Shown: positions 13,415 through 17,148 of the stretch, one piece after another | Layout: each line of letters starts with the position of its first letter | Position numbering within the stretch: position 1 is the stretch's first letter | Assembly: GCA_963701965.1 (NCBI GenBank) | Contig: OY969695.1 | Coordinates: forward strand, 2,560,001 to 2,624,000 | Length of the DNA: 64,000 nucleotides | Origin: an uncultured Gemmatimonadales bacterium | GTDB taxonomy: Bacteria; Gemmatimonadota; Gemmatimonadetes; Gemmatimonadales; Gemmatimonadaceae | Reading direction: 5' to 3' | The notes under the pieces: model-generated | What the model saw: only the letters and a program-made list of their open reading frames with translations | Told to the model about the DNA's origin: nothing | Database searches by the model: none | Program-made: the position numbers and the translations under genes

Positions 13415-14478
13415 CGAACTTGTTCACCCCGTTGTCGATCCGTGGCGTGACGCTGCGCAATCGCATCGCGGTATCGCCCATGTGCGAGTACTCCAGCGTC
13501 AATGGGTTCGCCAACGACTGGCATTTGGTGCACCTGGGTAGTCGCGCCGTCGGGGGCGCCGGACTGGTGATGACGGAAGCGACCGCGGTCACGGCCGACG
13601 GGCGCATTAGTCCGCAGGACCTCGGCATCTATCTCGACGATCATGTCCCGGCGTTGAGCCGCATCACGCGTTTCGTCGCCGAGCACGGCGCCGTGCCGGG
13701 CATCCAGCTGGCGCACGCGGGACGAAAGGCGAGCACGGCGCGCCCGTGGGACGGCGGGAAGCCGGTCGATTCCGAGCACGGCGGGTGGCAGCCGATCCAT
13801 GGTCCGAGCGCCCTCCCGTTCGCCGAAGGGTACGCGGTGCCCGACGCACTCGATGCGGACGGCGTGCGCCGGGTCATCGACGCGTTCGTCTGCGGCGCCC
13901 AGCGGGCACAGGCGGCGGGATTTCGCGTGATCGAGATTCACGCGGCGCACGGATATCTCCTGCAGGAGTTTCTGTCGCCGCTCTCCAATCGCCGCACCGA
14001 CGCCTATGGCGGATCGCTCGAGAACCGGTGCCGCTTGGTGTACGAGGTCGTACACGCCGTGCGCCGCGTGTGGAATCTCCCGCTCTTCGTGCGCATCTCG
14101 GCGTCGGAGTGGACCGAGGGGGGATGGACGATCGACGACTCCGTCGCGCTGGCGCGGGGCCTGGCGCCGATCGGGGTCGATCTCATCGACTGCTCCTCGG
14201 GCGGGAATGTCGCCAAAGCGACGATCCCCATTGGCCCGGGTTACCAGGTCCCGTTTGCCGAGCAGGTCCGGCGTGATGCCGGCATCGCGACGGGCGCCGT
14301 CGGCATGATCACCAATGCCACGCAAGCCGACACGATCATCCGCACCGGTCAGGCCGATCTCGTCTTTCTGGCTCGCGAGATGTTGCGTGATCCCTATTGG
14401 CCGCTGCACGCGGCCCACGCGCTAGGGCACGAGGGTCACTGGCCGGCGCAGTACTTACGAGCCAAGCCCGCCCGCTGA
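13411..14478 (+). CDS. NADH:flavin oxidoreductase (old yellow enzyme, YqjM/NamA type)
   Basis: [52 protein letters not shown]. Confidence 0.93.
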
Positions 14479-15958
14479 ACGGACATCGACCAAAAACGGA
14501 GCAGTCAGTATGCGTCCGTGGCGTTTGACCTGGACCCACACGTCATAACGCCCGGCGCGCGGGAACGCGTAGGGAAAGTCCACGGTGTCGCCGAGCGCCA
14601 TCGCCATGCCCATCGGCATCGCGCCTGCCGCGGCGATGCGGCGCGCGACGGCGCCATTGGCGGTATCACCGGGCTGTCGCGCGACGAGCGCTTGCTGCGC
14701 GACTTGAGAGACCGTGCCCATGGGATGCAGGTGCACGAACACGGACCCGTCGTCGCGCATGACGACCGCGTGTCCGGCCATCCCCATGTATGGCTCGAGA
14801 CCCGCACCGGGCCCCTCGACAACGAAACGCAGTCCTGCCGGCCGGCCGGCGACGGCAGAATCCCCGCCGCCGATCCATCGGAGCGTCGACCCGTCGGCGA
14901 GCGCCACGGACCGCGCCCCGGCCACGGGCGCCGCCGCGGACCACGCGTCGTCCGAATCACCCGGCGCCGCCTTGGAACGGCTCTCGGCATCGCTGATATT
15001 CACAACAGTCGTGAGCGTCTGATCCATGCCGCTCTCGTCGACGATGTCGGCGAACAGGCGATACTTCCCGGGCGGCAGCGCCGGAATGTTGGTCGTGAAG
15101 CTCAGCGAATCCACGGTCGACGGATGCAGAATGCGCGAACGCGGGCGCCCCACCTTCCTGCATGAGGAAGAGGTGCATGATCTTCCCGTGATCGGGGATC
15201 AGCGGAAACACCTCGGTGCGATGGGCGTTGAGCCACGCCGTGTCGCTCCGATGCGTCCACGCCGAGTCGGTGATCCGGAGCGTGAGCGTGTTGCCCGCGA
15301 CGCCCGCGCCGCTCTCATACGGCTGGAACATCGCATTCCGATACGCGGTATCCGTCGCTCCCCACCATTTCCATCCACCAAACAATACCAGCGCCACGAC
15401 GCCACCAGTCGCCGCCATGGCCAGCCGTGCCCGCCGGCGCCGGCGCGGATCCGGAATCTCACCGGGCGGTAGCGACCCTTCGCGGACCGCCGCCCCGGCG
15501 ATCGACATCGCGCCCACGAACAAGAAGATGCCAATGATAGCGAGCACCACCCCGAGCCCCCGATAGAGCGGGAGCCGGCGGGTCGCCAGCGCGACGACGG
15601 GCACGACGACCGTGCCCGTCCCTTTCGCGCCGCGGACGCCGACGGTGACGCTGTTGGACCCTTGCTCCATGACCCAGAGTCGCCCGGCGTACGTCGAGGA
15701 GTCGCCAGCGACGCGCCGCGCGACGTCCGGCGGCGGCGCCGCGGTCGTCGCATCGAACCGATTGACGAACATCGTGACCTGGTCGGCGCCGGCCACCCGG
15801 ACGGTGATGTCGGCGACGCCGGGCACGACCCCGGGCAGTCGCACGACCACCAACACCGGGTACGGTCCAGCCTTGCCCTCGAACCAGACATCCGGGCTGC
15901 CCACGTGCGCGCTGCATACGGCCACGAGCAGCGCCAGACCGACCGCGCGTTTGATCAC
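14455..15958 (-). CDS. Exported His/Met-rich protein with two internal TM helices; apparent frameshift near 15130
   Basis: Joins ORFs 14957..15958 and 14455..15153. Signal peptide ends VCSA before HVGSPD. Motifs [43 protein letters not shown]. Confidence 0.78.
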
Positions 15959-15965
15959 CGGCGCG

Positions 15966-17148
15966 TCAGCGCTTGAGGCGCTTCATGCCGTTGCCCCACA
16001 ACAGGCCGATCCGGGCCGAGATCGCGGCGTAGAGCATCGCCATCCCGATGCCCTGCGCGAATGTCCCGGCGCTTTCCGTCGGTCCCCAGAACACGTATCG
16101 CCAAGGGCCGAGCGGCTGGTTGTACTCCCACTGGTCGGCCGCGAAGAAATAATTGCGGGCGGCCGGTGTGAGCATGAAGTCCGCGAAGAACCACTCGACG
16201 GCCAGGAGCACGGCGACGAACGCCACCCCGAGGACGGCCGCGAGCTGCCAGTCGCGCCCCGGCCCGATCCGGCGCATCAGTACATCGATGACGACGGCCG
16301 GGACGACGAGGAGCAGCGGAAAGAACGGCGGCACCATGTGCGTGACGAGAATGGTAGATCGGCGCCAGCTTGGGCGTGGCCGGAAACGCCTCCAACGTCC
16401 ACATCATGATGAGCACGATACCCATGTAGATCGCCGCCGTGACGGTGGCCGGCCATTTGAGCCGTCCGGCCCGCGCGAACGCGATCAAAAAGATGGGAAA
16501 CACGGCGCCCAGCACCTTGTAGGCGGACGCCGCGTGCATGCGGTTGGGCGCCGCCGCGTATTGCATGATCAGCGTCGCGATCATGGTGATGAGGATCCCG
16601 CCGGCCAGCGCGTAGCTCAGCGCGTATGGGCGCACATCATCGTCCTTGGCGCGATTCTGCGCCGCCAGCGCCATGAGCATGGCGCCGACCTGGACGGCGA
16701 CCATGCCGGTCGCCAGCACCATGTGCGGCGGGCTCACGATCTTGACGTCGAGCCCGTACGCGTTGTGCCACCAGTCGTCGAACGGTGCCGACGTGATCAT
16801 GAGGAGGGTGCCCCAAATGCACACCCAGGCGCCCAGCGGTCCGCGAAATCCCCAGAACCGCACGGTCGAGGCGCGGTCGGCGACCGAGCCGGCAAACGTC
16901 GTGCGGAGCACCAGCCAGCCGCAGGACAAGCCGGCGACCGAGGCGCCAAGCTGCTCCTCGAGATGCGGCAGGGTCCAGAACGTGTCGCGTCCCACGGTGC
17001 GGTGCCACGAGATGTCCCAGATGAGACCCGTGACAATGCACAGCGAGGAGAACATCACGGCCGCCATCGTCCACGTAAGATCGGACGCGGCAACCCGTTC
17101 CAATGCGTCGGCGCGGTAGGTCGGACCCGCGGCAAGAGTCGTCGCCAT
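15966..17148 (-). CDS. Polytopic membrane protein with two D-x3-H...H motifs; apparent frameshift near 16350
   Basis: WDISWHRTVGRDTFWTLPH and FDDWWHNAYGLDVKIVSPPH, about 9-10 TM segments. The C-terminus continues in ORF 15966..16337. Confidence 0.8.

Follow-up and report, generated by a model that had tools for sequence, protein, structure and literature searches.

Two neighbouring genes on the minus strand of a 64,000-nucleotide stretch of contig OY969695.1 (the window; positions 2,560,001 to 2,624,000), from an uncultured Gemmatimonadales bacterium, raise the question of how far they are related to particulate methane monooxygenase (pMMO), as well as to ammonia monooxygenase (AMO), and what they do. 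Gene A encodes a membrane protein of ~394 aa with 10 predicted membrane helices, and gene B starts 7 bases after its stop codon. Gene A is very probably a remote homolog of the membrane subunits of methane and ammonia monooxygenases, fused in one chain. Taking homology and function together, we assign a probability of roughly 0.45 to the reading that gene A and the always-adjacent gene B would form a copper-handling redox complex, not a methane or ammonia oxidase. A preliminary description of this DNA had proposed a two-component, copper-dependent membrane enzyme or copper-handling system, either related to pMMO/AMO or convergent with them; a conserved two-gene, likely copper-binding membrane system with pMMO/AMO relationship was supported. 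In pMMO and AMO, the identity of the catalytic copper site, the way it is loaded and the origin of the enzymes are still open, and expression and purification of the native proteins are difficult. Such questions would become testable in a natural relative of only one or two genes that retains the ligands of both CuC and CuD together with the five-helix channel. The family is abundant, occurring in about a quarter of the sampled Gemmatimonadota and also in culturable heterotrophs. The gene pair is not evidence of methane or ammonia oxidation by its hosts.

Both genes are frameshifted in the window (see below), and further analysis was carried out on intact homologs, at locus L001 for gene A and L007 for gene B, whose residue numbering is used here. 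In PmoC, CuC is formed by Asp156, His160 and His173 and CuD by Asn227, His231 and His245, with Arg165 in the second sphere, as described in PMC12576850. The ligand spacings of gene A are identical to those of both sites, and its R58-D59 correspond to the invariant Arg-Asp of PmoC. D49, H53, H66 and D128, H132, H146 were invariant in all 69 aligned close homologs, and in a wider alignment the six ligands were present in 140-154 of 151-156 rows. At the CuD position corresponding to the PmoC Asn, 154 of 156 rows had Asp. The PmoC-like spacing and Arg-Asp noticed in the preliminary description were confirmed. Its "internally duplicated PmoC-like site" was not: the second motif is present, but with 13, not 12, residues between its histidines, and because the spacings equal those of CuC and CuD in PmoC, the two motifs are PmoC's own pair of sites and the second is a normal CuD site. 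The sites lie 79 residues apart in gene A versus 71 in PmoC.

Employing reference alignments of true PmoC, PmoA and PmoB assembled from loci and proteins (the C and A sets being checked against the PDB), we compared the first half of gene A with the PmoC profile. By hhalign, the two matched with a probability (P) of 93% and an E-value of 3.5e-7 (78% with a narrower alignment); the score was 49.8 bits, whereas 30 column shuffles gave 20.9 at most, and of the 18 columns conserved in both families 9 were identical. Pfam AmoC matched 13 of the 69 gene A members, below the cut-off (best E 6.5e-4), and the nearest named Atlas cluster was AmoC (0.79), which serves as a lead only. PDB sequence searches with P0001, A1 and A2 returned nothing significant. 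In the structure searches, model residues 20-170 matched generic four-helix bundles; these searches list one chain per PDB entry, and PmoC was not shown. We found no viral or phage source of the PmoC controls and no phage match for gene A. Gene A thus resembles PmoC/AmoC (PF04896; 7s4h_C, 9cl6_C) in the CuC pattern D-x3-H-x12-H with Arg-Asp, the CuD pattern N/D-x3-H-x13-H and the four-helix core. It differs in lacking the first two helices of PmoC, in the Asn-to-Asp change, in falling below the Pfam cut-off and in being fused to the next subunit. Two phenylalanines that are invariant in 16 of 16 PmoC proteins are also replaced in the gene A family, by Tyr/Gln and Ile/Val. The pMMO cavity is lined with phenylalanines (PMC13058606, PMC12801151), and the replaced residues are presumably among them.

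The two ligand sets in gene A likely bind copper. A site made of Asp/His/His is not specific to copper, and some pMMO crystals have zinc in CuC, as reported in PMC12804982. About 5-11 distant members (P0124-P0273 alignment) carry Glu, Gln or Asp at CuC/CuD histidines, which points to subfamilies with other metals. These observations, together with the Asn-to-Asp change, would suit a family whose D/H sites bind Zn or Fe, such as an intramembrane hydrolase or another enzyme sharing only ancestry or the four-helix scaffold with PmoC. We regard that explanation as most improbable, since the N-terminal His and Met/His clusters of the partner protein and the copper-island contexts described below point to copper.

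The absence of a pmoA, in the sense meant by the preliminary description, was not borne out: gene A is predicted from its model to consist of a PmoC-like core fused to a C-terminal PmoA-like domain. The model of the L001 homolog (L001:5938-7137; pLDDT 92.5, pTM 0.91) contained ten long helices, and its best Foldseek match was PmoA (7s4h_B, probability 1.0). After realignment with VIA, PmoA/AmoA chains, verified as subunit A, filled the first 12 rows at Z 14.4-15.5, and the row below them had Z of 9.3. The root-mean-square deviations were 3.5-5.3 Å over 185-219 residues, most rows placing model residues 172-400 on chain residues ~18-243. The register was the same in a model-free profile alignment, which paired residues 204-399 with PmoA 53-245 (P=11%, E 0.003). 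With a deeper alignment, the hhalign score against PmoA rose to 33.5 (P=40%, E 3e-4), versus 13-14 for CbiM/CbiQ/BioY; 30 column shuffles gave no more than 18.1, and reversal gave 15.0; 7 of 10 jointly conserved columns were identical.

Several results weigh against this assignment. The Foldseek E-value to PmoA was not significant (0.059 at best). Among 48,161 representative chains, an energy-coupling factor (ECF) S-component (Z 12.3) and generic four-helix bundles ranked above the single listed PmoA chain (3chx_B, Z 9.9). With subsets of 60 rows, the score against the PmoA profile dropped to 22.9, and decoys made by block shuffling scored as high as 28-31. Such decoys are poor controls because they retain local motifs, and they equalled or beat real scores. 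From the subset and block-shuffle scores, we take the PmoA sequence signal to be weak, so that the fusion claim rests mainly on the predicted fold. Relative to PmoA/AmoA (PF02461; 6cxh_B, 7s4h_B, 9leg_A), gene A shows the predicted six-helix fold over ~200 of 241 residues (Z ~15), a collinear weak profile match and common conserved P, T, W, P, A, D and W. At 11-16% identity, it lacks a separate gene and the GDW..DWKD loop and PEY motif, and has an E-x8-H loop instead.

In AMO, TM3-6 of AmoC and TM1 of AmoA form a channel cradling CuC and CuD, and AmoA has six helices (PMC12804982). The predicted helix order of gene A, four and then six, is that of AmoC TM3-6 followed by AmoA. The order C-A-B is typical of most xmoCAB operons (PMC6215863). 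On the model, the gene A chain would by itself rebuild the five-helix dicopper channel (AmoC TM3-6 plus AmoA TM1).

Because an S-component outranked 3chx_B, we regard the S-component fold as a real second relative of the C-terminal half. Model residues 172-400 align with both PmoA/AmoA and ECF S-components, which suggests that PmoA itself has an S-component-like fold; neither pMMO nor AMO is named in the main text of the paper on the S-component fold (PMC11109136). The structural likeness (FolT Z 12.3, BioY 9.3, RibU 8.9; Z 8-12 for S-components including CbiM) and the CopC/CrdA-like first domain of gene B with its N-terminal His would fit a non-redox copper importer or loader acting in the manner of CopCD/YcnJ, with an ECF S-component-like C-terminal domain and with the D/H residues as transit sites. 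This is unlikely. The PmoA/AmoA match is stronger (Z up to 15.5) and covers more residues; hhalign gave P of 0.2% to CbiM and BioY, that is, no profile similarity; no EcfT/EcfA or other ECF genes recurred nearby in 80 loci; and CopD was not displaced (see below). No CopD or CopC Pfam match was among the families listed for the 69 gene A and 67 gene B members. By these comparisons the pair belongs neither to the CopCD/YcnJ group nor to the ECF transporters.

Gene B resembles PmoB/AmoB (PF04744) in layout: it has a predicted signal peptide, an N-terminal His, a soluble domain, two membrane helices and a further soluble part, and it is the last gene of the unit. In the model of the L007 homolog (pLDDT 93.0), a signal helix precedes a beta-sandwich, after which come two membrane helices and two further sandwiches. 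The predicted mature N-terminal His (His21) was found in 67 of 67 members, preceded by Ala or Gly in 66. D266, H267, H272, H285, H287 and M408, H411, H424, H426 were invariant. The PmoB resemblance seen in the preliminary description held for this layout and not for the sequence: alignment with the PmoB profile gave P=0.4%, no detectable similarity, and PmoB was not among the 50 rows shown by the fold search. The CuB site of PmoB consists of His33, His137 and His139 (PMC12576850). Domain 1 of gene B had a His-x-His in 0 of 69 proteins; the His-x-His motifs sit in domains 2 and 3. The reading of gene B as a PmoB ortholog was rejected, although a CuB-type site could form across its domains.

All three domains of gene B are Ig-like (immunoglobulin-like). 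The best folds for domain 1 were CBM56 (Z 10.8), CrdA (9ll2, second row, Z 10.5), CopC (5icu, Z 8.4) and P19/Tp34 (Z 8.3), among many Ig folds and with Z values within the range common to them. CrdA is reported to bind copper (PMC9182242). YtkA-like Pfam matched 15 of 67 gene B members, weakly. Domains 2 and 3 repeat one another (P=84.5%, E 7e-6) and match stand-alone proteins on 18 plasmid records (E 5e-9 to 9e-5). In all 3 records opened of the 18, the stand-alone homolog adjoined heavy-metal P-type ATPases, one of them sitting between a gene with a heavy-metal-associated (HMA) domain and the ATPase. Gene B resembles CopC/CrdA/YtkA-like proteins in the fold of domain 1, and its domains 2-3 have sequence similarity to a protein encoded beside copZ-copA in Actinomycetota, but in gene B these domains are joined in one membrane-anchored chain that goes with a PmoC/PmoA-like protein. 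The two-domain His/Met protein homologous to domains 2-3 (L107:3336-4280, L108:3159-4151, L109:3282-4073) is encoded next to heavy-metal P-type ATPases, both in Actinomycetota and in haloarchaea; no Pfam family covered it in the gene B members scanned.

Among the best 80 related loci, gene B lay directly after gene A in 78, and the remaining two stop at a contig edge. The genes mostly overlap or nearly abut; the sole locus with a long insert (~1.6 kb) between them was L035:7150-8820. Conservation of the D/H/H residues and of the N-terminal His and gene adjacency across genomes had been proposed as checks in the preliminary description and came out in its favour. The hosts were Gemmatimonadota, Acidobacteriota, one Binatia genome, one Methylomirabilota genome and one cultured Bacteroidota isolate; the culturable heterotroph Chondrinema litorale carries the family members WP_284688389.1 and WP_284688390.1. 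Gene A was matched in 48 of 201 Gemmatimonadota genomes (2 of these by the C-terminal half only) and in 8 of 151 Acidobacteriota genomes (G577 included). In the phylum of the Binatia genome (G201) it was matched in the centre genome only and in 0 of 200 others. The gene A profile retrieved 2,654 clusters at 50% identity (E up to 0.001), 491 of them at E 1e-30 or better, and family proteins were annotated as hypothetical only. A literature search found no description of the family or of a PmoC-PmoA fusion, though subscription journals or supplements may hold one. G201 contains both a true copper membrane monooxygenase (CuMMO) and the gene pair.

Two degenerate homologs, L160:2347-3834 (-) and L161:2002-3144 (+) in G147 and G110, have kept the PmoA-like half (E 5e-52 and 3e-52) and lost most CuC/CuD ligands. 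The small frame after the L160 homolog encodes what we take to be an acyl-carrier-protein-like protein (DSL motif). This context hints at a metal-independent, perhaps lipid-related use of the scaffold.

Five proteins of 475-496 aa on actinobacterial plasmids keep both motifs and align with gene A at P=99.7%; they occur on Streptomyces and Mycolicibacterium plasmids. Past the gene A-like part they continue with a hydrophobic stretch ending in A-x-A, then H-D-P-G, a small soluble domain and one helix. By its sequence, the single-chain form looks like gene A and a cleavable partner with an N-terminal His in one chain. The tail had no significant profile match to gene B domain 1 or PmoB (P 0.2%; five sequences only). 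All five loci, when opened, lay among metal-homeostasis and cell-wall genes, weakly so in L084, with multicopper oxidase, cupredoxin, CopY-family regulator, HMA or YHS proteins and P-type ATPases as neighbours. None of 7,996 candidates was a longer fused form (735-2095 aa), which is weak evidence and does not extend to the 475-496 aa fusions. The M. chubuense NBB4 plasmid NC_018022.1 (L085, L088) carries a true hmoCAB and a single-chain homolog ~165 kb apart.

Copper as the metal, formation of an A-B complex and the function are all inferred. We ranked the possible functions with copper-handling redox first, a monooxygenase of another substrate close behind, then a non-redox importer and then a Zn/Fe enzyme. 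In the preferred copper-handling redox complex, the Met/His domains of gene B would collect copper outside the membrane, and copper might be passed via the N-terminal His site of gene B, and perhaps the conserved Glu/His loop of gene A, to the CuC/CuD pair. There its oxidation state would change against O2 or the quinone pool, in a step of the cuprous-oxidase or cupric-reductase type that may serve detoxification or the loading of copper proteins. A copper role is favoured by the CrdA/CopC-like domain 1, by the domain 2-3 homologs beside copA-type ATPases and by the single-chain forms in metal islands. Other observations stand against a copper-handling function. The single-chain loci lie on plasmids, on which metal resistance is over-represented in general, and their proteins are distant relatives (~30% identity). 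In the close family, copper-related flanking proteins amounted to ~2 of the 137 scanned (Cu/Zn superoxide dismutase and SURF1; 276 had been picked), the flanks being otherwise miscellaneous. CopD showed no anticorrelation with gene A, occurring in 30 of 48 genomes with it and in 91 of 153 without it (the latter tally includes G155). The second-sphere residues of CuC/CuD are kept, which would fit an O2-activating enzyme equally well.

This last point bears on a possible but doubtful alternative, that the pair is a true CuMMO of a new subfamily. A C-A fusion with a non-orthologous gene B supplying copper or electrons would then hydroxylate a probably bulkier, hydrophobic substrate such as a lipid, a quinone, an aromatic compound or a longer alkane. 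In favour of this, the pair retains the two ligand sets of the active site, Arg-Asp and Trp in the second sphere and the gene order C-A-B; the two replaced phenylalanines and the Asn-to-Asp change suggest a remodelled pocket; CuB is not considered to be the active site, according to PMC12804982; and the groups in which gene A was matched are aerobe-rich. A COX2-family domain was present in 8 of 8 Acidobacteriota carriers, but also in 121 of 151 genomes overall, and the association was not significant; neither CopD nor COX2 co-occurrence separated the functional readings. On the other side, GDW...DWKD and PEY, which are invariant in PmoA, have not been retained, the distant relatives are found within metal-resistance islands, and, unlike at the hmoCAB locus, no conserved catabolic gene lay beside or downstream of the pair in 80 loci. 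No third gene recurred beside the pair in more than ~10 of the 80 loci.

Compared with known CuMMOs, the pair has the CuC ligands, the CuD spacing with Asp for Asn and, on the model, the subunit A fold as a fused domain. It consists of two genes instead of three separate A, B and C subunits, and lacks a CuB site made of an N-terminal His and His-x-His in the same domain. Neither PF02461 nor PF04744 was among the families listed for the 69 gene A and 67 gene B members, and in the host genome neither PF04896 nor either of two true A/B/C sets found a match. Even the divergent CuMMOs of Thermoplasmata have separate A, B and C and keep all three B-site histidines (PMC9038741). The pair is likely a widespread remote branch of the CuMMO superfamily, built on the CuMMO scaffold, and not a member; it departs from the members in the separation of the subunits, in the Pfam signatures and in the CuB site. 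More speculatively, and with rather less confidence, it might represent another branch of the superfamily, much more widespread than the known one, in which a C-A fusion of minimal size has intact CuC/CuD and a swapped gene B, is reduced to a single C-A-B chain in Actinomycetota and activates O2 in common soil heterotrophs. Such a branch would preserve a connection of copper-homeostasis proteins and the S-component fold with the beginnings of methane and ammonia oxidation.

The coordinates of the features are collected in Table 1. The motifs quoted in the preliminary description, DISWHRTVGRDTFWTLPH, DDWWHNAYGLDVKIVSPPH, HVGSPD, DHGKIMH, MGMAGH and HLHPMG, were all located on the minus strand, and AHLHP of gene B is readable only by crossing the frameshift. 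These features did not arise by chance. In a six-frame scan of the host genome (5.1 Mb, a single contig), the strict CuC-like pattern DxxWH-x4-RD-x6-H occurred once, although a loose two-motif tandem occurred four times. The four gene A/B fragments of the window had no real match in Pfam or NCBIfam.

Table 1. Coordinates of the gene pair, its motifs and domains in the window, and of the single-chain relatives
Feature	Location	Strand	Remarks
Gene A	15966..17148	-	ATG 17148, stop 15966-15968; frameshifted near 16350
Gene B	14455..15958	-	GTG start 15958, ~500 aa; frameshifted near 15130
CuC-type motif D-x3-H-x4-RD-x6-H, DISWHRTVGRDTFWTLPH	16963..17016	-	Asp, His, His ligands and second-sphere Arg-Asp
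CuD-type motif D-x3-H-x13-H, DDWWHNAYGLDVKIVSPPH	16723..16779	-	Asp where PmoC has Asn227
PmoA/AmoA-like domain of gene A (predicted)	15969..16647	-	six predicted helices; conserved E-x8-H past first helix
One-base frameshift in gene A, approximate site	16345..16354	-	frame change versus L001
Predicted signal peptide, then mature N-terminal His (HVGSPD), gene B	15890..15958	-	conservation and model helix 2-18; HVGSPD at 15890-15907
Two predicted membrane helices of gene B, between domains 1 and 2	15362..15544	-	model
His cluster of gene B domain 2 (DHGKxMH ... HxH)	15110..15193	-	spans frameshift near 15130; D, H, H, H, H invariant 67/67; DHGKIMH at 15173-15193
Met/His cluster of gene B domain 3 (YMGMxxH ... 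HLHP)	14716..14790	-	M, H, H, H invariant; YMGMAGH at 14761-14790, HLHPMG at 14716-14733
Single-chain forms	L083:7989-9416, L084:7956-9401, L085:7944-9413, L110:6917-8407, L111:7001-8434		actinobacterial plasmids

The two indels suspected in the preliminary description were real changes of frame: both were confirmed against L001, a syntenic locus, and the loci nearest to the pair were from Gemmatimonadales. Of 13 L001 proteins matching the window, three were frameshifted there (gene A, gene B and an M16 peptidase). The M16 peptidase gene (window 18031-19020, minus strand) has its frameshift near 18316, akin to those of genes A and B. Because this neighbouring gene is broken likewise, the frameshifts in the pair suggest assembly errors of the long-read consensus type. 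That both are genuine and the pair in this genome is a recent pseudogene is very unlikely: two of the three frameshifts do hit the pair, but an unrelated gene is broken in the same way, in-frame stops are absent, identity to L001 is similar to that of intact neighbours, and the homologs have long open frames at 77 of 80 loci for gene A and 69 of 80 for gene B. The family-level claim is unaffected by this explanation.

A functional link of the pair to the flanking NADH:flavin oxidoreductase and methyltransferase genes was considered and rejected: the closest locus, L001, has no oxidoreductase, its methyltransferase being adjacent, and the flanks vary across the 80 loci. In the window, the NADH:flavin oxidoreductase gene (13411-14478) converges on gene B and follows a histidine biosynthesis operon (6175-13414, plus strand), whose hisH-like gene contains a short repeat within itself, near 9690-9800.

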